64,000 nucleotides of DNA, from the IMG/VR virus record IMGVR_UViG_3300027631_000002, positions 115,627 to 179,626 of that record; one strand, written 5' to 3'. Positions 13,918 through 52,357 of this stretch are shown here, piece by piece (the stretch's first letter is position 1; the number at the start of each line of letters is the position of its first letter). The notes below the pieces were generated by a model. The model did no database searches, was not told the DNA's origin, and worked only from the letters and a program-made list of their open reading frames with translations. The translations under genes were made by a program, and so were the position numbers. This DNA comes from a virus.

Positions 13918-14334
13918 TGCAGCATTTTTTGGTGCTTCTATTATAAAGTTTAAAGTCTTTTCATATAGAAATTGACTTACTTCAACTTCCATACCTACCT
14001 GCATCATTGTTTTAACTATTCTACCACATTCTGTATCAAGTACTTTAGATTTTAAAGTAAGTTTCTCAATCTTATTATTATTTAAGACAAATGTCATTCC
14101 TGTTATAGAACAACACACCTTTTTTAAGTATACCTGATGACTATGTTGATCATCGAGTGTAATATATTTCTGAATATCATCAATATCAAACTGTATTTTT
14201 TTACTACCTTCTAAAAGATAATTTAATTTTATCTCACGATAAACAGATTTCCAAGTTGGATAACTAGAAAGTGCTAAATTATAATCATCAAATTCTAAAT
14301 CATCTGCTAATATAACATCAAATAAATAGTCCAT
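13915..14334 (-). CDS. Hypothetical protein
   Basis: ORF coupled to the rnr stop; contains YREIKLNYLL. Confidence 0.65.
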   Translation of the reverse strand: MDYLFDVILADDLEFDDYNLALSSYPTWKSVYREIKLNYLLEGSKKIQFDIDDIQKYITLDDQHSHQVYLKKVCCSITGMTFVLNNNKIEKLTLKSKVLDTECGRIVKTMMQVGMEVEVSQFLYEKTLNFIIEAPKNAA

Positions 14335-16217
14335 TAGAACAATTCAAAATCGATTTGTTTTCTGTCTAGATCAACTGATTTAACAATTACTTTTACTTCA
14401 TCACCTAATCTTACTGATCCACCTGATTTTAAATTAACTGTATAGTTTTCTGCATCTACTTTATGATTTCCATTATATCTAACCATACCTTCACATTTAC
14501 TTTCAATAAGTTCAACATACATACCCCAATCGGTTACTCCTGATATAATTCCATCAAATACTTGTCCGATTTTATCTTCTAAGAATTCAATCTGTTTATA
14601 TTTAATAGAATCTCTTTGAGCTTTTGCTGCTAAGATTTCTCTTTCAGAACACCATTTTGCCATACCTTCAATCTTTTGAGGACTTCCATTAGATTTCTTA
14701 TTTAAAAAGTCTAATAGAACTCTATGAGTGATTAAGTCTGGATATCTTCTGATTGGTGATGTAAAGTGAGAATAATGAGTAAACCCTAATCCATAGTGTC
14801 CAGAGTTTACTATTGTATAACTTGCTTTAGACATACATCTTGTGATTAAAGTTTCAATCATATTTTCTTCTGGTTTACCTTTTATGTCAGCAACTAGTTC
14901 ATTTATAGATTTTTTCAAATCTTGTGTATTTTCAACAACATCTAAAGTATATCCAAAATTCTTACATATTAGAGAAAGTGCTTCTAACTTCTCAACATTA
15001 GGAGTACTATGTACTCTATAAACATTGTGATACTTCGCATCATAAAGAAGTTTTGCAACTAATTTATTGGCAAGTAACATATATTCTTCAATTAGTTTAT
15101 TTGCATCTTTCTGTTCTTTGAAGAAAACTCCAATAGGTTTCTTAGTAGTTGGCTCTAATTTGAATCTAACTTCTATACCACCCATTTCGATAGAACCATC
15201 ACTGATTCTTTGTTTTCTCATTTTCTTAGCAATAGTATCTAATAATAATATTTCGGTTTTGAAATCTCCTTCTTTACCTTCAATTATTTCTTGAGCTTCT
15301 TCATAAGAATATCTTCTATCTGAGTGTATTATAGTTTTTCCAAACCATTTATCTAATAGTTTTCCATCACTATCTAATTTAACTATAACTGAGAAACAAA
15401 GTTTATCTTCATTAGGTCTTAACGAACATACTCCATTACTTAATCTCTCTGGTAACATTGGTACACATCTATCAACTAAGTAAACTGATGTTGCTCTTTT
15501 AATAGCTTCTTCATCAATTATTCCACCTTCTTTAACATAGTGTGAAACATCTGCAATATGTATACCTACTTCTACTGTATTATCATCAAGTATATTAACC
15601 GAAAGAGCGTCGTCAAAATCTTTGGCGTCGACTGGGTCAATTGTAAATGTTGTGATATTTCTTAAATCTCGTCTGTTACTGATTTCTGATTCGTGAATTG
15701 TGAAGTCTATCAATTCCGCCTCGGCTTCTACCATTAAAGGAAAGTTGTTTGGTAAACCGTACTCATACATAATTGAGTTCATTTCTGCATTATTTTCACC
15801 TGAACTACCAAGTATCTCTACTATTTTTGCTTTTGGTGATTTTGTTCCTGGTTCCCAGTCGATTAGTTCGACAAGAACTTTTTGATCGTGTATTGCATCG
15901 TTTTCTCCTTTTATATAAAAGTCGACACCTATTTTTTGACTGTCTGGTACTACAAAGATTAGTCTTTTATTTTCTTTGTTTATTTGTACTTTACCAACAA
16001 ATTGTGTTCTGAATCTTTCGAGAACTTCAATAACTTCGGCTTCAATTTTATTGTTCTTAGTTATTGTTTTAACTTTAACTTTATCACCATTAAGTGAGTT
16101 AAGTGTATTTTTCTTAAATATGAAGAGATTTTTATCTCCTATATCTATTGAGGCATTTCCGCTGTTTGCGAAATCGATAGTGCCCTCAAAAACACTATCT
16201 TCTTTAATTTTATTCAT
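14334..16217 (-). CDS. rnr: Ribonuclease R (RNB family)
   Basis: Cold-shock-like N-terminus, catalytic TIDPVDAKDFDDA, HFTSPIRRYPDL, C-terminal S1 domain. Confidence 0.95.
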   Translation of the reverse strand: MNKIKEDSVFEGTIDFANSGNASIDIGDKNLFIFKKNTLNSLNGDKVKVKTITKNNKIEAEVIEVLERFRTQFVGKVQINKENKRLIFVVPDSQKIGVDFYIKGENDAIHDQKVLVELIDWEPGTKSPKAKIVEILGSSGENNAEMNSIMYEYGLPNNFPLMVEAEAELIDFTIHESEISNRRDLRNITTFTIDPVDAKDFDDALSVNILDDNTVEVGIHIADVSHYVKEGGIIDEEAIKRATSVYLVDRCVPMLPERLSNGVCSLRPNEDKLCFSVIVKLDSDGKLLDKWFGKTIIHSDRRYSYEEAQEIIEGKEGDFKTEILLLDTIAKKMRKQRISDGSIEMGGIEVRFKLEPTTKKPIGVFFKEQKDANKLIEEYMLLANKLVAKLLYDAKYHNVYRVHSTPNVEKLEALSLICKNFGYTLDVVENTQDLKKSINELVADIKGKPEENMIETLITRCMSKASYTIVNSGHYGLGFTHYSHFTSPIRRYPDLITHRVLLDFLNKKSNGSPQKIEGMAKWCSEREILAAKAQRDSIKYKQIEFLEDKIGQVFDGIISGVTDWGMYVELIESKCEGMVRYNGNHKVDAENYTVNLKSGGSVRLGDEVKVIVKSVDLDRKQIDFELF

Positions 16218-16605
16218 TATTTAATTTTTTTTTGTTTTTAGAAATGTTATCTACTCCATACTTCTGTACTAATGTTTTCTTCATCTTTTCTAAAACTTTT
16301 TTATTCTGTATCGGATAATCAACTCCGAAATTTTTTCTTAATGTTTCTTTTCTTTTAACTTCAGAACACTTTCTACAATAATAATCTCCCCAATCATTAT
16401 CATATTTTAAGTAGTTCTTATAGATTACTTCTTTTTCAATTCCACAAGTGTCACATTTACATTTGATTTTGTAATGTGATCCTTTCGGTAATAATTCAAC
16501 TGGAATTATAATTTCTTCACTTATATACACATCATATCCTAAATCATCATAATAGTTGTAATTTGACTCAGTGATTTTCACATTTATCTCTCTTGATAGG
16601 ATCAT
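16210..16605 (-). CDS. Zinc-finger protein resembling the N-terminal part of phage homing endonucleases; no nuclease domain visible
   Basis: CKCDTC..YCRKC followed by NFGVDY/KYGVDN repeats. Confidence 0.55.
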   Translation of the reverse strand: MILSREINVKITESNYNYYDDLGYDVYISEEIIIPVELLPKGSHYKIKCKCDTCGIEKEVIYKNYLKYDNDWGDYYCRKCSEVKRKETLRKNFGVDYPIQNKKVLEKMKKTLVQKYGVDNISKNKKKLNNE

Positions 16606-16803
16606 AAAAAACCGCATTTTTTTAAGTATTTATTAAATATAGCGTTTCTCCTCTAAAATTTTCACAAAGATAAAAAATCCAGTAGATATACCTAATAAAA
16701 ATCAAAAAAATTTTTTTACTATAAAGAATCCACCTTTAAAATTTTATTGTTTTCCAGGTTAAATATATACCATCGTAATAACTACAAAAAATAATTATTT
16801 TAA

Positions 16804-19014
16804 ATGAAACCGGTTTTAATAGTAGAAAATTCAACAAGTTCGCTTATTAGAGAGTCAAACTCTACTAATAAGGAGTATGTATTGGGTGGTACTTTTACTG
16901 AGTTTGGTGTAAAGAATCGTAATGAGAGGATATATCAAGCTGAGAAATTTTTACCAGCACTACAAGAAATGAATGAAAGAATGAGCAGCCTAGGTGTTGT
17001 TTATGGTGAATTCGATCACCCGGATGTTTTTGATACTTCGTTATCAAGAGCATCACACATTATTACAAAGGCAGAATTTGTTGCTGAAAAGAACATTGTT
17101 GCTGGAGAAATAAAATTACTAAGTACTTACTGGGGTAAGGAAGCTAAATCATTAGTTGATGACGGATGTCCAGTTTTTGTATCATCAAGAGCAGCTGGTA
17201 TAACAGAATCAGATGGTTCAGTATCATTAAAAAAACTTTTTACTTATGACATTGTTGCAGATCCTGGATTTGCATCAGCAAAAATGAGTGTAAGAGTATT
17301 AAATGAATCGTTAGGTTTTTGCCCAGAAGGACAAATCGAAAAAAATAACTTTAGGATATATGAATTATCTGACGAGTCAAAAATAAATGAACTATTCAAT
17401 ATGAACAAAGATGAATTTGTAACCAAGAAACAGTTAAGTGATTATTCACAGTATTTGGTTAAAGAGATTGCTTCAACAAAGAGTGAAGTGAAAAGTGCAA
17501 TTTCAAAAGGTAATATGAGCCCACAGAAATTGGAACAATTGTTAGAGTATTATGAAGAATTAAATAATACTAATTCACAAGTTGCTAAATATTTAGATTA
17601 TTTAGCTGACAAAATTCAAGTTGTAGTTAATGAAAATAAATCATTAAAAGACACAACTGAAAAATTGGCTAAACACAACGACTATTTAGCAGAAAATTTA
17701 GAAAAAGCTATTGCTTATTCTGAATATGTTGCTGAAAACTTAGACAAAAACATTGAGTATTCAGAATACTTAGCTGAAAACTTAGACAAAAACATTAATT
17801 ATTCAGAATATATTGCAGAGAACTTAGATAAAAATATCTCTTATTCAGAATACTTAGCTGAAAACTTAGACAAAAACATTGAATATTCTGAATATTTAGC
17901 AGAAAACTTAGACAAGAATATTGCTTACTCAGAATATATTGCAGAAAATTTAGACAAAAACATCGCTTACTCAGAATATATTGCTGAGAATGTTGATAAC
18001 TCAATTGCTTACTCAGAATACTTAGCAGAACACGTAGAAGGTAACATCGCTTACTCAGAATACATTGCTGAACATTTAGATGATAACATTGCATACTCTG
18101 AATATGTTGCTGAAAGTTTAGATAAATCTATCTCTTATCAAGGAATGATCGTTGAAAGATTAAATGGTGGTTTTAAATTAAATGAATCTACTGAAGAAGG
18201 TGATGAAGCTCAATTCCCTACATTACAAGACGCTGGTTTTGAAGAAAATGAAGATGAATTAGAAGGATCAGAAGAAGATGAATTCACAGGACACGAAGAT
18301 CACGAAGGTCACGAAGGTCATGAAGGATTTGCAGAAGAGGCTAAAGAATTTGCTGAAGAGGCTAAAGAGTTTGCTGAAGATGCTGCAGAGTTTGCTGGAG
18401 AACACGAAGGTGAAGGTCACGAAGGTGAAGAACATGAAGAAGAATTAGAAGGTGAAGAAGGTCAAGGTCTTGAATCTCAATTTATGGGAGAAGAAGACTC
18501 AGAACTTTCTGAATCAATAAATAAATTAATTGAAGAAGCTAAAAAACGTAAAGTTTCTGAAAGCAGTGATTTGAACTTTTTAAAGTTCTTAAACAAATCA
18601 CAAGTTGATAGCTTTTATGCATTATCAAACGAAGAACAAGAAAATGTGAAACTACACATAAACGAAAGTAGTTATTTTACACAGAAAGAAGTTCTTACAT
18701 TGATTGCAGAGTCATTATCAACAAAGAATGAATCTCTTGAAGAAAGAGTAATCAGATTGATGCCGGAAAACATTAAGCCAATCTGGGGACAGTTAAACGA
18801 ATCTGCTAAAAAGTCTATCTTGTCACAAGCTAGATTATATCCAGAAGACGTATTAAAAACTGAAAATCAAATTGAGCATTTCTGGGGAACTAGAAATATC
18901 AAAAAAAATGAATCTTCAACTAAGAAATTAGTAGCACATGAAGCTTTAATCCAAGAAGACAAATTGTCTGATAATGAGATGACTGCAATAATGGAAAGAT
19001 TCAAAAGTATATAA
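16804..19014 (+). CDS. gp21: Prohead protease fused to a repeat-rich scaffold region
   Basis: KNRNERIY, GEFDHP and VSSRAAG protease motifs, then 14-aa repeats and an acidic tract; lies directly before the capsid gene. Confidence 0.9.
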   Translation: MKPVLIVENSTSSLIRESNSTNKEYVLGGTFTEFGVKNRNERIYQAEKFLPALQEMNERMSSLGVVYGEFDHPDVFDTSLSRASHIITKAEFVAEKNIVAGEIKLLSTYWGKEAKSLVDDGCPVFVSSRAAGITESDGSVSLKKLFTYDIVADPGFASAKMSVRVLNESLGFCPEGQIEKNNFRIYELSDESKINELFNMNKDEFVTKKQLSDYSQYLVKEIASTKSEVKSAISKGNMSPQKLEQLLEYYEELNNTNSQVAKYLDYLADKIQVVVNENKSLKDTTEKLAKHNDYLAENLEKAIAYSEYVAENLDKNIEYSEYLAENLDKNINYSEYIAENLDKNISYSEYLAENLDKNIEYSEYLAENLDKNIAYSEYIAENLDKNIAYSEYIAENVDNSIAYSEYLAEHVEGNIAYSEYIAEHLDDNIAYSEYVAESLDKSISYQGMIVERLNGGFKLNESTEEGDEAQFPTLQDAGFEENEDELEGSEEDEFTGHEDHEGHEGHEGFAEEAKEFAEEAKEFAEDAAEFAGEHEGEGHEGEEHEEELEGEEGQGLESQFMGEEDSELSESINKLIEEAKKRKVSESSDLNFLKFLNKSQVDSFYALSNEEQENVKLHINESSYFTQKEVLTLIAESLSTKNESLEERVIRLMPENIKPIWGQLNESAKKSILSQARLYPEDVLKTENQIEHFWGTRNIKKNESSTKKLVAHEALIQEDKLSDNEMTAIMERFKSI
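17689..18141 (+). repeat. Coding tandem repeat of 42 nt (AENLDKNIxYSEYx), about 11 copies
   Basis: Read directly in DNA and protein. Confidence 0.9.
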
Positions 19015-19102: not shown

Positions 19103-20809
19103 ATGTCACACATTAGAATAGATAATCAAAAAGCCATGAAAAAATGGTCTCCAGTGTTGGAAAACATGGGAATTACAGGTGATAGAGTAGAATGGATGTC
19201 AGAATATGCTGAATTTCACTCAATCAATGAGAATGCGTATGTAAACGCATCAAACGTAGCAGGTATGGGTAATGTCCTTTCTGCACAACCACAAGCTTAT
19301 GCAGGACAAACAATCGGTGGTTCTTTGGCTGCAGGAACAATTGGTTCAGGTGATGTTGGTCAAAACTTGTTACCAGTTGCAATGAAAATTGCAGGTCAAA
19401 CAATCGGTCTTGACTTAGTTGCTGTTAAACCAACTCCAGGTCCGAAAATCGACTTACTTTATATTGACTTTCAATATGATGATACTCGTTTAGGTGCTGC
19501 TGATGAGAAACCACAAGTTTTCAAAGCTACAGCAGACCAATTATCTGCAGTACAAATTGCTCTAAGAGCTCAAATGACAACTTCTGGTATCGTTGAAACA
19601 CAAGGTGGTTTACAAGGTCCTAGATTATATGTTGTTGGTATCAATGCTAACTCAACTTTAACTACAAATGAACCAGCTGGAAAAGCTAATCTTGTTGAAT
19701 TCTTAGGATTCTCTCGTATCGATGGTTTCCCAATATTCAAAGCTTACAGACAAGCTAATAGTGCAAATGGTTATGCTGCTGGTGGTTCTGCTGCTGCAAC
19801 TTGGGATTTTGATACTACAAGAAATACATTTGGACCAACTCAAGCAATGACTACTGCAATTGGATCATTAGCAGGTGTTACTGTATCTAACGTTTCAATC
19901 TCATTAGTATCTGCATTAGAAGATCACATTCCTGGTTTCTCTGCTAACTGGTACGGACCTTCAACTCAAACTGCTGGTGCTTACCCAATGGACAGACAGA
20001 CAGATGATGATTCTTACTCAGGAGTTATTGGACCAAAAATCTCTTCTAAAACAGTTGCTGTTGGTACTATTGAAGTATCTTCTGCACTTAGAAGAACTGA
20101 GATTGAAGACATCAAAGCTAACACAGGTATGGATATCGTTCAAAAAATGGAATCAATCCTTGTTAATGAATTGTCTCAAACAATCTCTAAACAAATTGTT
20201 AATAAAATCTTCGAAATGGGAGATTTGAATAGAACTAATGCACCTTTAGCAGGAAGTACTTACTCTAATGCTATCACTAATCAAACTTTGTTTGACTTAG
20301 ATACTAAATATGCAGGAGCTTCAAATGGTCCTGGTGGTGAAACTACTCACGCTGTACAAAGAAAATTGATCACGAAAATTGCTCATGCTTCTAACTACAT
20401 CGCAACAGAAGGACGTGTTGGGCCAGCTCAATACTTAATCACAAATGGAGGTTTAGCAGCAGCTTTACAAGATATCGCTGGATACACAATCAATCCATTG
20501 AAATCTAAAATGAACTCTCAAGGTCAATTGTACCCAGTAGGTTCAATCGGAGACATCTCTATCTATGTTGATCCATACATGAGATATAACGATAACAGAA
20601 TCGTTTTAGGAAGAAAAAATAATCCTGATCAACCAGGTATTATTTTCGTACCTTACTTAATGGCTCAGTCAATTAGCATCATCTCTGAGGCTACATTCGC
20701 ACCAAGAATGTTACTTAGATCAAGATATGCAGTAACTGAAGTTGGATGGTACCCACAAAAACAGTTCATGACTATCAAAGTTTCTGATACTCTAGGATTA
20801 CTTAACTAA
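19103..20809 (+). CDS. gp23: Major capsid protein
   Basis: KKWSPVLE, IAGQTIGLDLVAVKP, VYVDPY-like IYVDPY, FVPY, LRSRY. Confidence 0.95.
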   Translation: MSHIRIDNQKAMKKWSPVLENMGITGDRVEWMSEYAEFHSINENAYVNASNVAGMGNVLSAQPQAYAGQTIGGSLAAGTIGSGDVGQNLLPVAMKIAGQTIGLDLVAVKPTPGPKIDLLYIDFQYDDTRLGAADEKPQVFKATADQLSAVQIALRAQMTTSGIVETQGGLQGPRLYVVGINANSTLTTNEPAGKANLVEFLGFSRIDGFPIFKAYRQANSANGYAAGGSAAATWDFDTTRNTFGPTQAMTTAIGSLAGVTVSNVSISLVSALEDHIPGFSANWYGPSTQTAGAYPMDRQTDDDSYSGVIGPKISSKTVAVGTIEVSSALRRTEIEDIKANTGMDIVQKMESILVNELSQTISKQIVNKIFEMGDLNRTNAPLAGSTYSNAITNQTLFDLDTKYAGASNGPGGETTHAVQRKLITKIAHASNYIATEGRVGPAQYLITNGGLAAALQDIAGYTINPLKSKMNSQGQLYPVGSIGDISIYVDPYMRYNDNRIVLGRKNNPDQPGIIFVPYLMAQSISIISEATFAPRMLLRSRYAVTEVGWYPQKQFMTIKVSDTLGLLN

Positions 20810-20828
20810 TTATTAGTTATAATATTTC

Positions 20829-20856
20829 AAAAAAAGACCCAATTGGGTCTTTTTTT
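20829..20856 (+). terminator. Intrinsic terminator after the capsid gene
   Basis: AAAAAGACCCAATTGGGTCTTTTTTT. Confidence 0.8.
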
Positions 20857-20881
20857 GTTTTATATAAATAATATATACAAT

Positions 20882-21274
20882 ATGAAATTAAAGAAATATT
20901 CACAGTTTAATGAATCTAAAAAAGATAAATTTCCTAATATTAAAAAAATGGAAGTTGATGGATTTATTATTCATTTAGGTAAAGATGCCAGATCTAATGA
21001 TCATTTAACATTTAATGTTGCTAATAATGATGACTTATGGATGCACGTAAAAGGTGTTCCAGGAAGTCATGTAGTTATTGTTGTTAAAGATAATATACCT
21101 ACTCCAGAAGTTATTAAAAAAGTTGCTGAAATTGCAAAAGATAATAGTAAGGCAAAAGGTACTGATAAAGCTACAGTGGTTTATTGTAAACGTCGTTTCG
21201 TTTCAAAAAAATCAGGTATGAATGACGGACAAGTTATGGTTGATTATAAAAATGCACATGAAGTCACTATATAA
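20882..21274 (+). CDS. Stand-alone NFACT-R (DUF814) RNA-binding domain protein with N-terminal tag
   Basis: GKDARSNDHLT, DLWMHVKGVPGSHVV, VVYCKRRFVSK. Start reassigned to ATG 20882, 4 nt after TAATATATA. Confidence 0.85.
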   Translation: MKLKKYSQFNESKKDKFPNIKKMEVDGFIIHLGKDARSNDHLTFNVANNDDLWMHVKGVPGSHVVIVVKDNIPTPEVIKKVAEIAKDNSKAKGTDKATVVYCKRRFVSKKSGMNDGQVMVDYKNAHEVTI

Positions 21275-21307
21275 TTTTAATATATAATAAAAATAAAAAC
21301 ATTCTAA

Positions 21308-22684
21308 ATGGCAAATGATTATAAAATGAAATATGAAGATGAAATAAAGATCGCATTTTCTGCTAGGTTAGTAAAACTTCTAACTACAATGGAAGATGAT
21401 CATGATGATTATATTGCATATGAACTTAACTGGATGGCAGATCCTAGGTCTAAATATGCCAATGATATGAATATATCAAGATTGGATATCTCTGATTCAG
21501 ATTATTTCTTTGATGCTATAATAGGTGGAAGAAGACAATATATCAAAATTGGAACATTTTTAAGAAGTTATTTCCCTGGCGTTTATGACGAAGAAAGTAT
21601 TAGAAAATTCTCTACTACTATTGTAAATCTTAAAAAGGGAGTAAAAGTTGCAGTACAACCAGTTGGTACACCAATTGAACATAAGCCATTTGTTTATAAT
21701 CCTAAAGATGTTCGTTCAACATTCTTATCATTAGTAACAAAAACTTATCCAATGGGTCATGAAACTGAGGTTTTAGAGTTTTTACCAGACTTAGAATTAG
21801 ATAAATTTGGGAATTATTATAAAGTAATTGCCGGAGATGATACTACAATGTTTACATCTCACTTAGATACTGCAGATAGAGCTCAATTACCTACTAAACT
21901 TCTATCAAAAATAGAAGATGGTGATGAGTATATTTATACTGATGGTACATCCATATTAGGTGCTGATGATAAAGCAGGAGTTGCAGTAATGTTATATATG
22001 ATGGAAAATAAAATACCAGGTATTTATTACTTCTTTATCGGAGAAGAAAGAGGTGGTATTGGTTCAAGAGATTTGGCAAGTGAATATAATTCATTTGAGT
22101 TTCTAAAAAATGTTAAGAAGTGTGTTTCTTTTGATAGAAGAAAAACTGGTTCAGTTATTACTTCTCAATATGGTAGAGTTTGTTGTTCAAACGAATTTGC
22201 TACAGCACTTTGTAAAGAATATAACAAAAGTGGATTAAACTTATCTACTGATCCAACAGGAGTATTTACCGATTCTGCATCATTTATAGATGATATATCA
22301 GAATGTACTAACGTATCTGTTGGATATAATAACGAGCATACATTTAGAGAGATTCAAAATATGACTTATTTAGAGAAATTAGCAAAAGCTTCTTTAAAAG
22401 TAAATTGGTCACAATTACCTTCAGTAAGAAAAGTAGGTATAAATGAAGAATTATTAAGAAGACATAAAACTTTGATTGATACTGTTAAAAAATCTATATT
22501 TGGGTTAGATGTTAAAGTAGTTGGTGTACAAGATAAAATATTTATTAAAATAGATTTAGATCTTGCTGATGTTAAAACTATTTTTGATACATTATCACAA
22601 GTACAAGGTTTATTATATAAACATAGAACCGCAGATCCTTATGTTGTTTTTGACGAAACAACCATCAAAATAGAATTAAAATAA
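21308..22684 (+). CDS. M28/M20-clan zinc peptidase with an extra N-terminal domain
   Basis: SHLDT, LGADDKAG, GEERG, SFDRR, FTDS, GYNNEH. Confidence 0.8.
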   Translation: MANDYKMKYEDEIKIAFSARLVKLLTTMEDDHDDYIAYELNWMADPRSKYANDMNISRLDISDSDYFFDAIIGGRRQYIKIGTFLRSYFPGVYDEESIRKFSTTIVNLKKGVKVAVQPVGTPIEHKPFVYNPKDVRSTFLSLVTKTYPMGHETEVLEFLPDLELDKFGNYYKVIAGDDTTMFTSHLDTADRAQLPTKLLSKIEDGDEYIYTDGTSILGADDKAGVAVMLYMMENKIPGIYYFFIGEERGGIGSRDLASEYNSFEFLKNVKKCVSFDRRKTGSVITSQYGRVCCSNEFATALCKEYNKSGLNLSTDPTGVFTDSASFIDDISECTNVSVGYNNEHTFREIQNMTYLEKLAKASLKVNWSQLPSVRKVGINEELLRRHKTLIDTVKKSIFGLDVKVVGVQDKIFIKIDLDLADVKTIFDTLSQVQGLLYKHRTADPYVVFDETTIKIELK

Positions 22685-22685
22685 T

Positions 22686-23276
22686 ATGATACAAAAGTAT
22701 AAAAGATTTACAGAAAGAGTTGATGATGATGCCTGGGAAGGTACAGATCAAGATTGGAATGATGATTGGGCGGGTGGTTCTAGAAAGAGCAATTCTTTAG
22801 GATCTCGTTTTGATATGTCTGGTGAAATACCGGATGATGATGAAGATTTCTATGATAGTGAATACTATGGTGGTGCAGCTCATAACTTTGATCATTATGA
22901 TAATAAAGATGGTGATAAAGATAGAGATCCAGATTTATCTGATGAGGATATAGAAGATGATGATATGGAACACTTAAAGTACTTATTAAGAGGTATGTTT
23001 AAAAACAAAGGTATTGAAAATGTTTCTATTACTAATGATAATTTAGACTTATCTATTAGATGTTCTATGGGTCATAGAGAAAGATTAAGTGATGTAATAA
23101 ATGTTTTTGATCTTTTAAATAAATTAAAAATGGATATTCTACCTCAATATGATTCAGAATTTGATATGTGGGAAAATCAAAGAGGTCAAACTTTAGAATT
23201 TGGATTCTATTATGATGAAGGATTAAATGATGATACTGATGAAGATTTTGGAGAAGATGATGAAAGTCCATTTTAA
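22686..23276 (+). CDS. Acidic hypothetical protein with N-terminal tag (MIQKYKRFTE)
   Basis: Asp-rich ORF. Confidence 0.7.
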   Translation: MIQKYKRFTERVDDDAWEGTDQDWNDDWAGGSRKSNSLGSRFDMSGEIPDDDEDFYDSEYYGGAAHNFDHYDNKDGDKDRDPDLSDEDIEDDDMEHLKYLLRGMFKNKGIENVSITNDNLDLSIRCSMGHRERLSDVINVFDLLNKLKMDILPQYDSEFDMWENQRGQTLEFGFYYDEGLNDDTDEDFGEDDESPF

Positions 23277-23306
23277 TTTTGTATATTTGTAAAAAATTAA
23301 ACAATT

Positions 23307-24584
23307 ATGGCAAAAAATGAAAGTATAAATCCTTTAGATATAAAGGATACTTTTTTGAAACTAACTGAATATACAATTCCTTATGGTGATGAAACTAAAT
23401 TGGAAAAATATCTACCAAAAGGATATAAAAAAGATTCTATTGGTAACTATTATATTCAAGTAGGTAATTCAGAAACATTGTTCACAACACACTTAGATAC
23501 TTATTGTACTAAATATGAAAAGGTAAATCACGTTATTGAAGGTGATATTATTAAAACCGATGAAACAACCATATTAGGTGGTGATAATAAATTAGGAATG
23601 TGTATTCTATTATACATGATTTCTAAAGGAATACCTGGAACTTATTACTTCTTCTTGGGAGAAGAACCAATTTTAAGTGGTGGTTTATGGGGATCACAAA
23701 ATGCTTTAAAAGCAAATCCAGAATTCTTCAAAAAATTTAAAAGAGCAGTTGCATTTGATAGAAAACAAACAGGTTCTGTTGTTCTAAGACAGAAAGGTAG
23801 ATTTTGTTGTTCTATTGATTTTGCAGATGCTTTATCAGATGAACTAACTAATCTAGGAGTTGAGTCTAAACCAGATCCAAACGCTTATTATACAGATACT
23901 GCTACTTTCTTAGACATTATTCCAGAATGTACTAACATTAGTGCTGGCGGATGGAATGAACACTATAAAACAGAGTATGTAGATTTATCCTACACTAAAA
24001 AAGTTGCAGAAGCTGCTTGTAAAATTGATTGGGAAAACTTACCAACTGAAAGAAAAGTAACTTATTTTGAACCAAAATATAAAATTGAACCAAGACATCG
24101 TTTCTCTAATAAGAGTGTCGTAAAAGAAGTTAAATTTATTTTAAATAAATATGACTTATTACACACAAATACATTAGAGTATGATACTTATAACACTGAT
24201 ACTCTTGTATTTAATACTTGGTTTGAAGATATTGGTATTAAAGTAACCATTTTAGATGATATTTTAGTTCAAATCGAAGGTCAAAAAGATGTTAAATTTG
24301 ATTTCAAAGATGTTAAAAAATTAAATACATATTTAGGAAATCTATTTGGTATTGATATTAGTCCAGATGATTATAAGATGATGATCTTTAATGACGACTC
24401 GGTGAGCGTATTAGGGATGCGTTTTAAGAGCTTTGAAGAGTATGTTAAATACTTTGATAGTATAAACACGGATGATACGTCATATGTCATTAAAAAAGGT
24501 GGTGAACAATATAAAGAGTATTATGGTGATGTGATACCAAAAGAACTAGTTATTAAGTGGTTTACTGATAATGTTCTTGAATAA
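23307..24584 (+). CDS. Second M28/M20-clan peptidase (paralog of 21308..22684)
   Basis: THLDT, LGGDNKLG, GEEP, AFDRK, YTDT, GGWNEH. Confidence 0.8.
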   Translation: MAKNESINPLDIKDTFLKLTEYTIPYGDETKLEKYLPKGYKKDSIGNYYIQVGNSETLFTTHLDTYCTKYEKVNHVIEGDIIKTDETTILGGDNKLGMCILLYMISKGIPGTYYFFLGEEPILSGGLWGSQNALKANPEFFKKFKRAVAFDRKQTGSVVLRQKGRFCCSIDFADALSDELTNLGVESKPDPNAYYTDTATFLDIIPECTNISAGGWNEHYKTEYVDLSYTKKVAEAACKIDWENLPTERKVTYFEPKYKIEPRHRFSNKSVVKEVKFILNKYDLLHTNTLEYDTYNTDTLVFNTWFEDIGIKVTILDDILVQIEGQKDVKFDFKDVKKLNTYLGNLFGIDISPDDYKMMIFNDDSVSVLGMRFKSFEEYVKYFDSINTDDTSYVIKKGGEQYKEYYGDVIPKELVIKWFTDNVLE

Positions 24585-24650
24585 TAAAAAAAAATAAAGC
24601 CAAAAACTAAACTTTTTGGCTTTTTTAATCTAATATATAAACAAACAATT

Positions 24651-25026
24651 GGGGATGTAATAGCATTGATTCTTGGTTGATTAATAATTATGCAAGTATC
24701 GGGTGGCCTACAATGACCGATTAATAAATTAGATGGTACAATTTTAAACGGCAACGTTAATCAAGTAGGAACAAGTGAAGATTTAGTAGCTTGCTTACAA
24801 AACAATTTGATCTCTAACAGAGATTTAGTAGTAGCTTAATCAAATAAGACTAATACACCAAAAATTCTACAGCTGTGGTCACCAGTTTAAAAGTGAAACT
24901 TTTTTATTAGTACTTTGAGATTCAAAAACTGATTATTTTGTAAGACTTAGAAAAACTTACTAAACTTGTAAACGAATAATTTGCGATGACTAAAAAGACA
25001 CGTGAGGCAGTATCACGTCATCTCCA
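24651..25026 (+). ncRNA. ssrA: tmRNA
   Basis: 5' GGGGATG pairs with 3' CATCTCC-A, including the G3.U alanyl determinant. T-arm CGTGA-GGCAGTA-TCACG. Length about 376 nt. Internal tag frame 24750..24839 reads GNVNQVGTSEDLVACLQNNLISNRDLVVA*. CCA is not encoded (CAA follows). Confidence 0.88.
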
Positions 25027-25030: not shown

Positions 25031-25060
25031 AAAAAAACCCACTCATGAGTGGGTTTTTTT
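25031..25060 (+). terminator. Terminator after tmRNA
   Basis: AAAAAAACCCACTCATGAGTGGGTTTTTTT. Confidence 0.8.
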
Positions 25061-25075
25061 ATAATATATAAAATT

Positions 25076-25585
25076 ATGATAACAAAATTTGATGGTAGAT
25101 ATGGGTTCTTATCCAATTTCTACCCGTGTAAAATAGAATACCAAGGTATTACATACAATAGTGTTGAAACATACTATGTTGCTATGAAGTGTAATAATGA
25201 CCAAATGATTGATGGTAAATACTATACTGCTGCTGATTTTAGAGAACTGGTTGCTAATATGGCACCTGGTAAAGCTAAACAATTGGGCAAGGTTATAAAA
25301 GTACGTTCTGAGTGGGATTCAAAGAAGTTGGGTTTTATGGAATGGGCAGTTAAAGAGAAGTTCAAAGATGAAACATTAAAAGAAATGTTACTAATGACTG
25401 AAGATAAAGATATTATTGAAGGTAATTATTGGCACGATGTCTATTGGGGTCAATGTACTTGTGAAAAGTGTGTTGGTAAAGGTAAAAATAAATTAGGTAA
25501 ACTTCTAATGGATATAAGAAGTGAATTAAATGGTACTAAAAAACCAAATCTTTTTGATGTTTTATTTAAAGACAAAAAAGCTTAG
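25076..25585 (+). CDS. NADAR (YbiA-like) family protein
   Basis: FLSNFY, IEGNYWHDVYWG, GKNKLGKLLM. Start reassigned to ATG 25076. Confidence 0.85.
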   Translation: MITKFDGRYGFLSNFYPCKIEYQGITYNSVETYYVAMKCNNDQMIDGKYYTAADFRELVANMAPGKAKQLGKVIKVRSEWDSKKLGFMEWAVKEKFKDETLKEMLLMTEDKDIIEGNYWHDVYWGQCTCEKCVGKGKNKLGKLLMDIRSELNGTKKPNLFDVLFKDKKA

Positions 25586-34912: not shown

Positions 34913-35029
34913 TATTTAATTGTGTTTTTTATTAGAACTATATATTAAAAAAATATTTTCACTTTTTATTAAACAAAAGATAAGTTTCATGATATATAAT
35001 CATGTAAAAAAATTAAAAAACAAAAAACC

Positions 35030-35215
35030 ATGAAAAAAGTATTATTCGCTGTAATGGCAATCGCTGCAATTTCTTTAACATCTTGCAAAAAAACTGAAAC
35101 TGTAGATGCTACAACAACTGTTGATTCAACTGCTGTTGATACTACTAAAGTTGATACAACTGCTGTAGATTCAACAACTGTTGACACTACTAAAACTACT
35201 GAGGTAGCTAAGTAA
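35030..35215 (+). CDS. Small lipoprotein with Thr/Asp-rich repeats
   Basis: Signal peptide MKKVLFAVMAIAAISLTS-C (lipobox LTSC), then VD(S/T)T repeats; a terminator follows. Confidence 0.8.
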   Translation: MKKVLFAVMAIAAISLTSCKKTETVDATTTVDSTAVDTTKVDTTAVDSTTVDTTKTTEVAK

Positions 35216-35324
35216 TCAAAAAAAACACTGACAATTTTTCAATCATTTTGTTTGATGTGAAAAAAGAGAAACAGAAATGTTTCTCTTTTTTGTTTTTAGG
35301 AATTATGTATTTAATATATAGTTT

Positions 35325-39524: not shown

Positions 39525-40595
39525 TTAAGAGTTGTATTTAAAATTATGATTCTCTTCAATATTTAGAAGAGTTTCGTAAATCAACTCTATAACATTTTTA
39601 ATATCTTCCTTATGAACAGTTTCACAAGTTGTGTGCATGTACTTGAGTGCTAAAGAAATAAGTGCAGAAGGAGTACCACCATTCGCATAAGCAAACGCAT
39701 CGGTATCTGTTCCAGTTGATCTTGAAGATGCTGCTAACTGGTGAGGGATTTTTTTAGCCGTTGCAGTATCCAAAATCAATTTTCTCAATTTATTATGAAC
39801 TGCAGGACCTCTTGTAATAACACCTCCATCACCAGCAATGTGATCACCTTGTTTACTTGCGGTATAGCAAGGTGATGATGTTTCATGACAAACATCAGTA
39901 ATAATAGCAACATTTGGTTTAATTGTGTGTGCAATCATTTCAGCACCACGTAATCCAATTTCTTCTTGAACTGAATTAACAATGTAAAGTTTAAATGGTA
40001 GTTTTTTACCTTTCTCTTTTAATTTTCTTGCAACCTCGGCAATCATAAAACCACCAATTCTATTGTCAAGAGCTCTACCAGAGTAGTAATCTTTACCAAG
40101 TTTCATCAACTCATCTTTAAAAGTAACTACAGTACCAACTTGAATACCCATCTTGGCAACATCCTCTTTTGAAGAAGCACCAATATCGATAAAAATTGAA
40201 CTTAAATCAACCTCTTTCTTTCTATCAGCAATATGTATCGCTGGATGTCCAAAGACGCCTGTAACGACTCCTTTTTCTCCCCATAGATTTACTCTCATAG
40301 AAGGAGCAATTTGTACGTCAGAGCCACCATTTCTGATAACTCTAATATATCCTTTTGAGTCAATGTAGTTTACAAACCAACTGATTTCATCAGAGTGTGC
40401 TTCGATAACAACTTTAAAGTCAGACTCTAAATTACCGGTAACACCATAAGCAGTACCATAATTATCAAGTTCTACAGAATCGACATACTTTTCAATATTG
40501 TCCATCCAAACTTTTTGTCCACCTAATTCATACTCAAAACCTGTTGGAGAAGTACTGTTCAAGTACTCTTTTAAAAACTTTTTGTTTAATTTCAT
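39525..40595 (-). CDS. M42 family aminopeptidase (TET/FrvX-like)
   Basis: AHSDEI, ALDNRIG, QEEIGLRGA, DVCH, YMHT metal-ligand motifs. Confidence 0.9.
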   Translation of the reverse strand: MKLNKKFLKEYLNSTSPTGFEYELGGQKVWMDNIEKYVDSVELDNYGTAYGVTGNLESDFKVVIEAHSDEISWFVNYIDSKGYIRVIRNGGSDVQIAPSMRVNLWGEKGVVTGVFGHPAIHIADRKKEVDLSSIFIDIGASSKEDVAKMGIQVGTVVTFKDELMKLGKDYYSGRALDNRIGGFMIAEVARKLKEKGKKLPFKLYIVNSVQEEIGLRGAEMIAHTIKPNVAIITDVCHETSSPCYTASKQGDHIAGDGGVITRGPAVHNKLRKLILDTATAKKIPHQLAASSRSTGTDTDAFAYANGGTPSALISLALKYMHTTCETVHKEDIKNVIELIYETLLNIEENHNFKYNS

Positions 40596-43094: not shown

Positions 43095-43275
43095 TAAAAT
43101 GACCTGGAATTGGAATATAATTGGTAATGATCAAAGATTAGTATTCAAAATACCACTAGAATCATTGAAGTCAAAAAATAGATGGTGGGAAATCTGGAAA
43201 AAGAATTCTTACAATTTTAAAAACAAATATATAAACAGACAAATAAAAATAATAAAAATATTCAACATTGAATAA
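43087..43275 (+). CDS. Small Trp-rich hypothetical protein
   Basis: Overlaps the clamp stop and the IF3 start. Confidence 0.45.
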   Translation: MSSKMTWNWNIIGNDQRLVFKIPLESLKSKNRWWEIWKKNSYNFKNKYINRQIKIIKIFNIE

Positions 43276-43801
43276 AAAACAACTAAATTCTAAAAGAAAA
43301 CACAAAATAAATGATGATATTAAGTCATTTGAAGTTAGACTAATCGTTACAGGTGCCGCACCAGAAGTGATGAAGACTAAAGATGCACTTCGTTTAGCAG
43401 ATTCAGAAGGAAAAGATCTTATTTTAATCAATGAGAATCAAGATCCACCTATTGCTAAAATCGAAGATTACGGTAAATTTCTTTATAACATCGAAAAGAT
43501 GTTAAAAGAACAAAAGAAAAATGCCATAAAATCAGAATTAAAAGAAATAAAACTCTCTTGTGAGATTTCAGACCATGACTTAGAAATTAAAGCTAAGAAA
43601 GGTAAAGAGTTTTTATTAGATAATGATAAGGTAAAATGTGTTATTCAATTAAAAGGAAGACAAAAAGGTAATCCAGATAGAGGACAACTAGTAATGCTAA
43701 AATTTGCCACAATGTTGGACGAGTTTGGATCTGCCGAAAATATACCAAAACTTGAGTCTAGTAAATGGCTTATGATATTAAAACCAAAAAAGAAGAACTA
43801 A
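43268..43801 (+). CDS. infC: Translation initiation factor IF-3 (TTG start)
   Basis: INDDI..EVRLI, DLILI..PPIAKIEDYGKFLY, KEIKL..DHDLEIK, DKVK..KGRQ. Confidence 0.9.
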   Translation: MNKKQLNSKRKHKINDDIKSFEVRLIVTGAAPEVMKTKDALRLADSEGKDLILINENQDPPIAKIEDYGKFLYNIEKMLKEQKKNAIKSELKEIKLSCEISDHDLEIKAKKGKEFLLDNDKVKCVIQLKGRQKGNPDRGQLVMLKFATMLDEFGSAENIPKLESSKWLMILKPKKKN

Positions 43802-43821
43802 TGTTCTTCTTTTTTATTTAA

Positions 43822-43848
43822 AAACTTTTCTATCATGAATCATATAAT
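43822..43848 (+). promoter_or_regulatory. Putative early/middle promoter AAAC-N17/18-TATAAT (representative copy)
   Basis: Recurs before the gp55 region (8779), dam, the lipoprotein, 37018, 40677 and the clamp on the + strand, and before the clamp loader, M42 and primase on the - strand. Confidence 0.65.
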
Positions 43849-43852
43849 ATTT

Positions 43853-45313
43853 ATGACAAAGGATGAAAAAAGACAAAGAATAGAACAGCTGAAAATACAA
43901 GCAGTTCAGTTAAAGAAAGATGTTGAGTATTACAATGCAATGCAGACAGCTCTAAAATTGGTATTAAATGGTAGCTATGTCTAACCCCCACTACGTTATG
44001 TGGTGGGGGTTAGACATAAAAAAAACGGAGCATTTGCAACTGCCTACTTCATATTATATAATAATCACGTAGCAGGTACAATAACGGCACAAGGTCGTGA
44101 TTTAACAAAAACAATGGATAGAGTAAATGAAGATTATTGGTATAACCAATGGCATCTTGATTTTGATGTACATGATAAAGTAGGAATTAAAAATGTTACT
44201 CAAATTGATAAAAGTGAGCATGTGAGTATTTATGCAGATACTGACTCATTATTTGTATCATTTAAACCGGCAATCGATCATTGTGATTGGAATAATCTAG
44301 TTTTAAGTGAGATTGATTCTATAGATAAAAAGTTTATTGTTCTTTCAAAAGCAAAAGTAAAACATAATAATCCGAATTGTGTTGCAGTTGTTCATTCAGT
44401 AGATGAGTTAAAAGATACTATCTGTAATGGTTATGACTTATTAGTATTTGATGGACATTTCATTAAAGATAGAAATCTTAATGGTATGATAAATGATGGT
44501 GTATTTACATCAGAAATAAAATGGAATTGGACTAGTGAATTAGAACTAATTCAAGGTTTAGATCATTTCAGATATGGTGGATATTTCAAACAATGTTTAG
44601 AAGATTATGCTGCTTCATTTGGAGTAGAGAATAAAGAAGACTTTGAGTTAGAGAAAATCTCTGAATCTATTATCAATATAGCCAAAAAGAAATATATTCA
44701 ACATATTGTACATGAGGATGGTATCAACTTTGATCCTATGACTTATATATTCCCTAAAGGAGTTGAACTTGTACGTTCATCCACACCTTTATTTGCAAGA
44801 GATAAGATTGTAGATATTGTAAGATACTTATTTTCTAATCCAGATACATTCAACATTAAAGAATTATTGAAATTAGTTAAGAATTTAAGAAAAGAATTTG
44901 AATTAGCAGATATTGATGATATTGCAATGCAGTCTTCTTGTTCTAACTATGATGCTAAGATTATTGATGATAAGAGTTTGCCTTTAAGATATGTAAATGG
45001 TTCACATTTTGCAGTCAAAGCGGCGGCTTATCATAATTACTTATTAAATTTGGATAGAGTAGCACAACAGAAATATGAATTTATTAAATCGGGTACAAAG
45101 ATTAAGTATTATGTTTGTAAGGATAAAACTGTGAATGATCAGTTTGCTTATATGAGAGGTTCATACCCTCATGAGTTCGCTCCACAGATAGATTATGACG
45201 AACAGTTCGCGAAAGCTATACTTTCCCCGATCAATTCAATTATCGAACCATTAGGTTTACCTGAAATAACTAAACGATTGTCGGTAATAATGGACATATT
45301 CAATGGCTTCTAA
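43853..45313 (+). CDS. gp43: Family B DNA polymerase C-terminal half, interrupted by a 48-nt in-frame insert containing a stop (ORF1 43853..43984, ORF2 to 45313)
   Basis: ORF1 ends QTALKLVLNGSY-V*; the frame resumes at GAFATAYF..TITAQGR; IYADTDSLF, AKKKY and KGVELVRSSTP follow. Confidence 0.88.
43976..44026 (+). other. 19-bp GC-rich hairpin plus A7C spacer inside polymerase motif B
   Basis: TATGTCTAACCCCCACTAC-GTTAT-GTGGTGGGGGTTAGACATA, with one G.U pair. Confidence 0.9.
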
Positions 45314-46642: not shown

Positions 46643-47116
46643 ATGAAAAGTATAGTAGCAGAAGAATTTTCCGGTCAAGAAAAGACTGATGAATTACTAG
46701 ATAAAATATCTAAGTATGGTATAATATCTTTGACTATACATGAAAAAGACTTTTTAGACGCAGTTTCTTTAGGTGATGAAGAAGCAGTTAAAACTAAGAT
46801 GAGGATTTTAAGTACTGATACTATTTTTGAGGATGATTACTTTAAATTTGAATTAGATGATATAAAGTATGAAGAAGATGGTATTGAATATATTGGTACT
46901 TTATATGTACCAGATTTAGAGAAATCGCATAAAACAATAGAGGGAAACTTAAAAGGTAAAATAATACTTTATAATACCGGTGCTTATTCACTTGATTTTT
47001 TAAAAGTTGTAAATGATAAGGGTAAAGTAGTGGAATATGATGTTTTTGAGTTTTGTGGTGGATTAGAATATGAATTAGATAGCTTTATAGACTATGTGGT
47101 TCAAGAATTAGAGTAA
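46643..47116 (+). CDS. Hypothetical protein with an N-terminal DUF6576-like helix
   Basis: DELLDKISKYGIISLTIHEKDFL. Confidence 0.65.
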   Translation: MKSIVAEEFSGQEKTDELLDKISKYGIISLTIHEKDFLDAVSLGDEEAVKTKMRILSTDTIFEDDYFKFELDDIKYEEDGIEYIGTLYVPDLEKSHKTIEGNLKGKIILYNTGAYSLDFLKVVNDKGKVVEYDVFEFCGGLEYELDSFIDYVVQELE

Positions 47117-47707: not shown

Positions 47708-47753
47708 TATTTTAATAGATATAAAAAAACCACTCATTTGAGTGGTTTTTGTT

Positions 47754-48077: not shown

Positions 48078-48137
48078 AATAAGTCTTTTTTATTTTATAT
48101 ATTAAAACAAAAAACACAAAAAAATAAATAAAATATC

Positions 48138-49334: not shown

Positions 49335-49400
49335 ACTGAATATATTGTAAAAGGCTTACTAAGTTTAAATAAAAAATCCTCTTAAAAAAGAGGATTTAAT

Positions 49401-50558: not shown

Positions 50559-50630
50559 AGTATTATAATATTTTTTATTATATATTAAATTTCATTTATA
50601 AAAAAAAGAGGACTAAATCCTCTTTCTTAT

Positions 50631-50939: not shown

Positions 50940-50986
50940 ATATGTTATTATTTTTTTATTATATATTAAATTATTAAACGTCTTTT

Positions 50987-51637
50987 TTACACTTTTACAT
51001 ACTTATAATCAAGATTCGGTAGTTTACTCTTAATAACTTTAGTAGCACCTTTTAAATACTTTATATTATCATCGTAAAATATAACCTTATTAAATCCAGT
51101 TTTCTCAACCAGTTCAACAATCTTTTCACCTTTCCAACCACCCGCATTATAGTGATTTTCATAAGGATACATATGAAGTCCATATTTAGGATATTCTAAT
51201 CCTAACTCTTTCATAATTTTTTCAATTTTATCTCTAATCTTTTCTGAACGAGCGGTTACTATACATTTATTCTCTACTGAATTATAAAAATCTACCAGTT
51301 CCAATGTTTCTGTTGGTAAACTTAAATCAGTTGTTCCAAATATATCTGGTGCGGTAAGATAAACTCTTTTGCCTTTTCTAACCCAGTTTCCTTTTACTTC
51401 AATATTCTCACTTGGATCTTCTACATAAATTCTACCATCTTGCCATTTTAAATCTGACTTATTTACACCAATACTTTTAGTTGATTTATCTACTATTTCT
51501 TTTATAGAAACATCTTCTGTTAAGTATTCAATAACAAATCCTTCAAATTCTGGCGTGTTTACAAGAGTATCATCAAAATCGAACACGTATAATGTGTCAT
51601 TTCTATCAAATGTCTCGAAAATCTTTAAATACTTCAT
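50987..51637 (-). CDS. Tagged HAD-family phosphatase-like protein
   Basis: MKYLKIFETF; VFDFDDTL, IVTARS, FYDDN. Confidence 0.7.
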   Translation of the reverse strand: MKYLKIFETFDRNDTLYVFDFDDTLVNTPEFEGFVIEYLTEDVSIKEIVDKSTKSIGVNKSDLKWQDGRIYVEDPSENIEVKGNWVRKGKRVYLTAPDIFGTTDLSLPTETLELVDFYNSVENKCIVTARSEKIRDKIEKIMKELGLEYPKYGLHMYPYENHYNAGGWKGEKIVELVEKTGFNKVIFYDDNIKYLKGATKVIKSKLPNLDYKYVKV

Positions 51638-51697
51638 ATCATTATATATTAAACTTTTACTCTATTTTATAATAAAAACAAAAAATAAAATTCTTAA

Positions 51698-52357
51698 ATG
51701 AAAAACGACTTACAAAAATTTCTACGAAGTCAATCTATTTCAAGCACCTTTCAAGACAATTACTTTAAACACTTACAACGAAAAAATAGTACTCCTATGT
51801 TATTAGAGAGTAACGGTATGTCAGTTGATGTTTTTTCAAAGTTACTGGATGATCGAATTATCTTTCTATCTACTGAAGTTGATGAATATGTCACGAACAT
51901 AATCAAAGCACAACTTCTTTATCTAGAATCTGAAAGTGATGAAGACATATCAATCTATATTGATAGCCCAGGTGGTTCGGTTTATACTGGATTAGGCTTA
52001 CTTGATGTAATGGACTTTGTTAAACCAGACATTGTTACAATCAATACGGGGCTCGCTGCATCGATGGCTGCCGTAATTCTATGTTCTGGTACAAAAGGTA
52101 AGAGAATGGCTCTTAAAAGAAGTAGAACGATGATACACCAACCATTATCCTATGCTGGATATCAACAAGCATCTGATTTAGAGATTGAAGTAAAAGAGAT
52201 AAACTCTTTGAAAAAAGAACTTTATGAAATAATTTCTGATAAATCTGGACAAGCTTTTGATAAAGTTGCTAAAGACGGTGATAGAGATTATTGGATGACC
52301 GCACCAGATGCAAAAAAGTATGGAATTATCGATGAGATAATATTAAAAAGAAAATAA
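51698..52357 (+). CDS. clpP: ATP-dependent Clp protease proteolytic subunit
   Basis: YIDSPGGSV, GLAASMAA (Ser), MIHQP (His), RDYWM (Asp). Confidence 0.95.
   Translation: MKNDLQKFLRSQSISSTFQDNYFKHLQRKNSTPMLLESNGMSVDVFSKLLDDRIIFLSTEVDEYVTNIIKAQLLYLESESDEDISIYIDSPGGSVYTGLGLLDVMDFVKPDIVTINTGLAASMAAVILCSGTKGKRMALKRSRTMIHQPLSYAGYQQASDLEIEVKEINSLKKELYEIISDKSGQAFDKVAKDGDRDYWMTAPDAKKYGIIDEIILKRK

Follow-up and report, generated by a model that had tools for sequence, protein, structure and literature searches.

A phage fragment with a tmRNA and protein quality-control genes

We analysed 64,000 nucleotides of viral DNA (hereafter the window), which form the final 64 kb (positions 115,627 to 179,626) of the 179,626-bp IMG/VR virus contig IMGVR_UViG_3300027631_000002; the completeness of this contig is estimated at ~30%. 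The window has a G+C content of 23-35% and carries a one-piece transfer-messenger RNA (tmRNA), which we located by eye in a 464-nt gap 3′ of the gene for peptidase B. A first-pass annotation of this DNA had listed, within 38 kb, a tmRNA, RNase R, ClpP, a stand-alone NFACT-R protein, IF3, an M42 peptidase and two M28-type peptidases, and had proposed that the phage rebuilds most of a trans-translation pathway. Profile matches bear out RNase R, ClpP, NFACT-R, IF3 and M42, each of which is present, and the tmRNA is there too, conserved and covarying, though ARAGORN and Rfam are silent on it. The tmRNA and the genes first considered with it are as follows.

24651-25026, plus strand: one-piece tmRNA, identified from homologues, structure, covariation and tag frame
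25031-25061, plus strand: intrinsic terminator of the tmRNA gene (hairpin and U-run); an equivalent hairpin follows nearly all homologues
14334-16217, minus strand: RNase R homologue of 627 aa with CSD2, RNB and S1 domains; TIGR02063, 629.6 bits against a cut-off of 597.85; phrog_13933
51698-52357, plus strand: ClpP of the cellular type; PF00574, E = 4e-66; Ser/His/Asp triad intact
20882-21274, plus strand: stand-alone NFACT-R protein, 130 aa from ATG 20882 (open reading frame (ORF) open from TTG 20843); PF05670, 54.3 bits against a cut-off of 29.8
21308-22684, plus strand: peptidase A, a PepT/M20-like metallopeptidase of clan MH; phrog_4191, E = 3e-63
22686-23276, plus strand: 196-aa protein (orf196) in the same operon-like block; present in 54 of 80 related loci
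23307-24584, plus strand: peptidase B, a paralogue of peptidase A; phrog_4191, E = 2.5e-52

Judged from its genes for a T4-type portal, a gp21-like prohead protease and a gp23-like capsid protein, the fragment comes from a megaphage of the T4-like kind. At the DNA level, three 'uncultured phage' records of 634-642 kb are the closest named relatives, with ~77% identity over parts of their length. Genomes of 634-642 kb were reported by Al-Shayeb et al. 2020 (PMC7162821), who assigned them to the 'Mahaphage' clade and predicted Bacteroidetes hosts.

Structure and covariation of the tmRNA

The two ends of the RNA form a 7-bp acceptor stem, in which GGGGAUG (24651-24657) pairs with CAUCUCC (25019-25025) and which includes a G3:U70 pair. 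The stem is followed by a discriminator A at 25026; the genome here reads A-CAA, so CCA is not encoded in the tmRNA of the window. The T-arm (25000-25018), with the loop GGCAGUA, lies directly 5′ of the 3′ acceptor strand. From one end to the other, the layout consists of acceptor, helix 2, a first pseudoknot (PK1), the tag frame, an internal hairpin, a second pseudoknot (PK2), a further hairpin and the T-arm. A promoter-like upstream box, either TAnnTTTG (Bacteroidota-style) or ATATATA, is found in nearly all copies of the gene, with the terminator downstream.

Sensitive BLASTN searches revealed full-length homologues, ~70% identical, in the phage genomes LR756502 and LR745206. An nhmmer profile detected the full-length RNA in 62 of 80 related loci (retrieved via the gp23-like capsid protein), located 2.4-6 kb downstream of the capsid gene. 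The homologue set comprises 50 distinct sequences, and the alignment used for structure analysis (A2) contains 48. RNAalifold applied to this alignment recovers the acceptor stem, the long helix 2, the PK1 hairpin and the T-arm; the second stems of the two pseudoknots and two hairpins were added to the RNAalifold structure and then counted on the alignment. The model contains 68 pairs in 13 helices, in which 95.5% of alignment cells are paired, compared with 35-50% when the partners are slid. Changes on both sides are seen at 46 of the 68 pairs, and the observed values were reached by none of 500 shuffles. G3:U70 is kept in 46 of 48 homologues, pairs 5 and 6 of the acceptor stem covary (AU, GC, GU and CG all occur at pair 5), and five of the six pairs of the T-stem change on both sides. 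Pairing reaches 91-100% in helices 2-4 and in the two stems of PK1 (53-57/72-76 and 61-64/89-92), all of which also covary.

The tag frame runs from GGC at 24750 to 24836 and ends at a TAA stop codon (24837-24839). The predicted phage-specific tag of the window tmRNA is (A)GNVNQVGTSEDLVACLQNNLISNRDLVVA. A frame of 27-30 codons is present in all 48 homologues, always with V or A as the last residue, and its resume codon, GGN, follows UAAAC or UAAAU (GAC in one of the 48 copies). Both alternative frames run into a stop within 2-20 codons. Ahead of the resume codon, 38 of the 48 homologues are free of in-frame ATG, GTG and TTG codons. We considered that the frame might be an ordinary small gene and rejected this, since a start codon is not conserved and the frame meets a stop a few codons upstream.

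The tmRNA is missed by standard finders

ARAGORN called no tmRNA in the window, in the whole contig or in two relatives, and none of the 50 homologues (0/50). Rfam, run at gathering and E-value thresholds on the window, the contig and the homologues, gave no RF00023 match to the element, which scores below every RF00023 threshold; the RF00023 matches elsewhere in the contig are tRNA-sized. The sole Rfam signal is a weak match to RF01849 (alpha_tmRNA), which scores 16.3-16.8 bits where the gathering score is 50. With its T-loop GGCAGUA, the element agrees with the consensus of RF01849 (GGCgGUA), and the agreement extends to the flanking GAC...CUCCAC context. The finders fail because RF00023 expects the T-loop UUCGAAU and because the RF01849 model is permuted. 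The lack of an ARAGORN or Rfam call points to a limitation of the detection models and is not a property of the RNA's structure.

The missing ARAGORN and RF00023 calls, together with a T-loop that lacks UUCGA and the hairpins inside the supposed tag frame, might also indicate that 24651-25026 is another kind of structured RNA, or a small protein gene within a structured leader. We consider this highly improbable. The acceptor stem with G3:U70, the discriminator A, the position of the T-arm, the enclosure of PK1 by helix 2 and the start-less frame after UAAAC or UAAAU all fit a tmRNA, and the T-loop is that of the alpha_tmRNA consensus. Moreover, LR756502 and LR745206 encode SmpB without any other tmRNA, as no canonical tmRNA above the cut-off was found in either. 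On the basis of sequence and covariation, we conclude that 24651-25026 is a genuine one-piece tmRNA with Ala-type identity elements (G3:U70 and discriminator A).

We found the PK1 signature in 92 IMG/VR contigs; in a set of 185,579 species genomes it was confined to two small contigs of metagenome-assembled genomes, CAZKEK010000113.1 and JALOAD010000047.1, which are binned as Candidatus Peribacteria and Candidatus Muiribacterium. Both are probably mis-binned phage DNA; one, of 25,694 bp, is equal in size to an IMG/VR phage contig.

SmpB and a ClpC-like ATPase in near-complete relatives

The first-pass annotation saw neither SmpB nor a Clp ATPase in the window, which we confirm and extend to the whole 180-kb contig; as this contig is only ~30% complete, the absence carries little weight. 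We therefore turned to the six relatives of at least 385 kb that carry the tmRNA: LR756502, LR745206 and contigs of 385, 436, 476 and 483 kb. All six encode exactly one SmpB, scoring above the equivalog cut-offs, and one Hsp100 ClpC-like ATPase of ~701-714 aa with a GVGFS loop. SmpB of LR745206 passes the TIGR00086 and NF003843 equivalog cut-offs and has a full C-terminal tail. The ATPase of LR745206 is without an N-domain and has a UVR-like linker; its GVGFS motif follows the second sensor-1, the position at which the ClpP-binding VGF loop sits in ClpC. No ClpX was found. In the same six relatives, NFACT-R is present in all, and ClpP and the RNB (RNase R) gene in five each.

In LR756502 (364599-368013) and in the 436-kb contig (79293-81875), SmpB has a neighbour 2-3 kb away, a short, divergent ClpP-like paralogue of ~190-196 aa that scores 92-94 bits; this is the only close pairing of Clp and trans-translation genes that we saw. 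Two further contigs, of 249 and 242 kb, are rated 89-90% complete by CheckV, yet are without SmpB and ClpC-like ATPase genes. As these genes are present in all relatives of at least 385 kb, the CheckV estimates look too high for this clade, and the two contigs are probably fragments.

RNase R and ClpP

The RNase R homologue keeps the catalytic motifs DxxxxxDxDD and SPIRRY and is without the N-terminal HTH region. ClpP scores 263 bits with NF011091, compared with 76 bits with the head-maturation ClpP model, and remains below the equivalog cut-offs of NF011091 and TIGR00493. A role for this protein as the prohead protease was rejected, because a gp21-like protease is present and the ClpP models score far above the head-maturation models. 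The neighbours of ClpP are primase-like, kinase-like and helicase genes; for the ORF that follows it, PHROGs, Pfam and Atlas gave nothing useful.

The NFACT-R and peptidase block

The NFACT-R protein probably starts at ATG 20882, because a terminator that follows the capsid gene (20828-20857) overlaps the TTG start and the homologues are of matching length (608 were found, mostly of 129-130 aa). Only the NFACT-R domain is present; the protein thus belongs to the NFACT-R domain family and not to RqcH. It matches the C terminus of RqcH/EfbA models. The nearest clusters at 50% identity are short proteins, and the more distant ones are RqcH C termini. In a curated phage collection, only the two megaphages have close matches; the remaining matches resemble pieces of RqcH and come from 'phage' records of low quality.

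Like RqcH and NEMF, the 130-aa protein has a full NFACT-R domain with D-x-W-x-H, the motif that RqcH needs for 50S binding. Unlike them, it is without NFACT-N, HhH and coiled-coil-M, no tRNA-Ala recruitment is expected, and it is encoded in an operon-like block with M20-like peptidases. In Bacillus subtilis RqcH, the NFACT-R domain contacts the A-site finger of the 50S subunit via the DWH motif (bioRxiv 10.1101/2020.09.03.281279). The phage protein probably binds the 50S A-site finger. The lone domain cannot add Ala tails, because NFACT-N, which is needed for tailing, is missing. It may bind the 50S subunit and there assist, obstruct host RqcH or recruit the adjacent peptidases to the ribosome.

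The block from NFACT-R to peptidase B is bounded by terminators. Peptidases A and B are 44% identical over 250 aa, and most relatives have a single copy. Both have the HxD, DDK and GEE metal-site motifs of PepT/M20-like enzymes, and the PDB tripeptidase 3rza aligns with peptidase A across these motifs. The M28 model (PF04389) reaches 20.9 bits against a gathering score of 21.3 for one of the two ORFs and does not match the other. Their sequences place both peptidases in clan MH, closer to M20 than to M28; the earlier description of two M28-type peptidases therefore holds at the level of the clan and not of the family. The protein encoded between them, orf196, has no Pfam, NCBIfam or PHROG match, and Atlas returned a viral hypothetical cluster only.

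Linkage and co-occurrence in the clade

The tmRNA, the RNase R gene and the NFACT-R and peptidase block lie within a conserved head module, the other members of which are, in the window:

12114-13877: T4-type portal
16210-16617, minus strand: DUF7487 / homing-endonuclease-like ORF
16804-19014, plus strand: gp21-like prohead (head maturation) protease; phrog_207, E = 3e-27; present in 80 of 80 related loci
19103-20809, plus strand: gp23-like major capsid protein, on which the conserved module is anchored; PF07068, E = 2.5e-29
25076-25585: NADAR-domain protein, directly after the tmRNA terminator; position kept in 56 of 80 related loci

The conserved order is portal, orf139, RNase R and DUF7487 (both on the minus strand), prohead protease, capsid, NFACT-R, peptidase, (orf196), tmRNA, NADAR and Dam. 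All 80 of the 80 related loci have the DUF7487 ORF between RNase R and the prohead protease, an unusual constancy for a homing endonuclease. Presence and loss were counted in 36 non-redundant head-module loci with enough flank: the tmRNA is present in 35, a peptidase in 34, RNase R in 28 and NFACT-R in 27. NFACT-R alone is lost in seven and RNase R alone in six, and both are lost in two, compared with 2.0 expected by chance; the losses of NFACT-R and RNase R are thus independent.

The remaining two genes of the first-pass annotation lie outside this module.

39525-40595, minus strand: M42 aminopeptidase; PF05343, E = 7e-73, 245.6 bits, profile positions 6-292 of 292
43268-43801, plus strand: IF3, with IF3_N and IF3_C; TIGR00168, 143 bits against a cut-off of 60

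A strong M42 homologue is present in three of five relatives, at unrelated positions, and IF3 occurs in 3 of 11 relatives; both genes are patchy in distribution and unlinked to the other listed genes. Co-occurrence across relatives is borne out for RNase R, ClpP and NFACT-R, each present in five or six of the six large genomes, and fails for IF3; M42 and ClpP are not syntenic. Within the window, the listed genes are on both strands among structural and replication genes, and only 20882-25026 is a tight co-directional block. Complete relatives have them scattered across hundreds of kilobases, without global linkage. Their clustering within 38 kb is not itself remarkable.

These patterns bear on the proposal that all eight genes form one coordinated kit for ribosome rescue and recycling, deployed after host defences that cleave mRNA or tRNA. 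All of the genes are real, the tmRNA, RNase R, NFACT-R and peptidase genes are syntenic in the head module, and the missing SmpB and ClpC exist in relatives. However, the kit as a whole is very unlikely given the rarity of IF3, the scattered positions of M42 and ClpP, and the independence of the NFACT-R and RNase R losses. In addition, no step in trans-translation has been established for IF3 or for aminopeptidases, NFACT-R on its own is unable to make Ala tails, and nothing ties the gene set to host defences.

A second possibility is that these are accessory genes acting independently of each other. The tmRNA-SmpB pair would manipulate or titrate host trans-translation, or sense the state of the host; RNase R would recycle host RNA to nucleotides; ClpCP and the aminopeptidases would recycle host protein to amino acids for a very large burst; IF3 would bias initiation; and NFACT-R would block host RqcH at the 50S A-site finger. 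Such independence is in keeping with the dispersal of the genes in complete relatives and with the location of ClpP among replication genes. Three clan-MH aminopeptidases fit bulk peptide recycling, phage NFACT-R keeps the DWH motif that contacts the A-site finger in RqcH (bioRxiv 10.1101/2020.09.03.281279), and a phage tmRNA consisting only of the tRNA-like domain (TLD) has been proposed to titrate SmpB (PMC4131195). We nevertheless regard this explanation as doubtful, as the conserved frame of 27-30 codons and the SmpB of the phage itself favour real tagging over titration. RqcH, moreover, is found in only about one-fifth of FCB-group genomes (PMC11633108, table columns as read here), and the target of an anti-RqcH protein would therefore often be missing.

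Other genes of the window

Searches of PHROGs, Pfam and Atlas were uninformative for the ORFs around M42 and IF3. Of a family B DNA polymerase (43802-45313), only a fragment starting at 44000 is visible, and the short ORF found in the 43802-43999 gap stops just ahead of this fragment. Further along, a UvsW-like DEAD-box helicase (53296-56163) is apparently split by an intein: 53296-54396 encodes the DEAD part and the N-terminal part of a Hint domain, 54414-55253 is a TnsA/REase-like endonuclease ORF, and 55240-56163 encodes the C-terminal splicing motif of the intein and Helicase_C. The short DUF6576 motif is found in two otherwise unrelated ORFs (27816-28517 and 46643-47116), C-terminal in one and N-terminal in the other. 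Finally, a small ORF in the 34913-35324 gap encodes a lipoprotein-like signal peptide (Cys after a hydrophobic stretch) and then Thr/Val/Asp-rich repeats, and is followed by a terminator.

Discussion

The solid result of this analysis, drawn from sequence comparison, is a phage-owned tmRNA-SmpB pair. We consider it fairly likely that the megaphage lineage encodes its own trans-translation core. In this respect, the idea that the phage rebuilds most of the trans-translation pathway survives for the core, which the lineage encodes, and is not supported for the eight genes as one functional kit. ClpP with the ClpC-like ATPase, and RNase R, are conserved in the clade and are plausible downstream partners of the tmRNA. 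On present evidence, the NFACT-R and peptidase operon, which adjoins the tmRNA and is conserved yet separable, lies outside the pathway; so do IF3 and M42, as unlinked accessory genes of a phage rich in translation genes and as ordinary parts of the extensive translation and metabolism gene complement of huge phages.

According to this model, the RNA would be processed at its 5′ end, receive CCA and be charged by alanyl-tRNA synthetase. The charged tmRNA would then bind the phage SmpB, encoded outside the fragment, and the complex would enter stalled ribosomes and append the tag (A)GNVNQVGTSEDLVACLQNNLISNRDLVVA. Tagged products would be degraded by phage ClpP together with the ClpC-like ATPase seen in relatives, and RNase R would remove the faulty mRNA.

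Several observations weigh against a self-contained trans-translation core. SmpB, the Clp ATPase and a CCA-adding enzyme were all sought in vain on the ~30% complete, 180-kb contig, so that SmpB and ClpC, like the CCA enzyme, are extrapolated to the phage of the window from its relatives. CCA is encoded in only three unique homologues, and a host enzyme would be needed to add it. The T-stem has six pairs. The tag is about three times the usual length (~10 aa) and ends in VVA, ATV or ELV, not LAA; its recognition by any Clp unfoldase is consequently a guess. In Escherichia coli RNase R, a Lys-rich C-terminal tail mediates tmRNA-SmpB-dependent recruitment. The phage RNase R has no such basic tail and ends two residues past the S1 domain. 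The 385-kb relative has the tmRNA, SmpB and ClpC, and both ClpP and RNase R are missing from it. ClpP varies among relatives in copy number (0-3) and in position. Lastly, clade-wide genes co-occur whether or not they interact.

A bolder version of the trans-translation reading would make the system orthogonal to that of the host. The one-piece tmRNA with its alpha-type T-loop would have co-evolved with the phage SmpB, its tag of 27-30 aa would be read by the N-domain-less ClpC with ClpP, and phage and host quality control would be kept apart; the NFACT-R and M20-peptidase operon would be a new ribosome-bound module for 50S-trapped or tagged chains. We regard this version as distinctly unlikely.

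The proposed core can be set against known systems. In the order of its elements, G3:U70 and the discriminator A, the phage RNA is like the bacterial one-piece tmRNA (RF00023) that works with SmpB, and SmpB of the relatives has the full C-terminal tail. It departs from RF00023 in having GGCAGUA and not UUCGAAU as its T-loop, a 6-pair T-stem, and a tag of 27-30 as opposed to ~10 aa, ending in V or A instead of LAA. Its T-loop and flanking context match the alphaproteobacterial tmRNA (RF01849), which is two-piece and permuted, whereas the phage gene is in one piece and in standard order, and the predicted hosts are Bacteroidota (PMC7162821). The resemblance to ClpCP/ClpXP and RNase R decay lies in the intact ClpP triad and the RNase R above its equivalog cut-off in the window, and in the VGF loop of the ClpC-like ATPase in relatives. 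Differences from such systems are the lack of any ClpX among our matches, an ATPase without N-domain, an RNase R without basic tail, the non-LAA tag end and the non-adjacent genes.

Phage tmRNAs have been described in the mycobacteriophage Bxz1 group and in Bacillus phage G (PMC4131195), and huge phages with tmRNA, SmpB and IF3 were reported by Al-Shayeb et al. 2020 (PMC7162821), where the tmRNAs were called by ARAGORN. The present phages are like those in carrying a tmRNA together with SmpB and other translation factors, and differ in that their tmRNA variant escapes that caller. The variant, its tag and its position in the head module have therefore probably gone unannotated so far. New here are the tmRNA variant itself (a one-piece RNA overlooked by standard finders, with an alpha-type T-loop and a long, conserved tag) with its fixed place in the head module, the operon of a stand-alone NFACT-R and peptidases, and the presence of SmpB and a ClpC-like ATPase in all near-complete relatives.

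Neither ARAGORN nor Rfam sees the tmRNA of this whole megaphage clade, so surveys of translation genes in phages arrive at counts that are too low. An alpha-type T-loop in a one-piece layout, combined with a tag of three times the usual length with a conserved core, provides a natural test of what SmpB, EF-Tu and proteases require. The stand-alone NFACT-R beside peptidases is a lead on the function of the NFACT-R domain alone. If the phage ClpC-ClpP does read the tag, these megaphages would have a virus-owned pathway of protein quality control.

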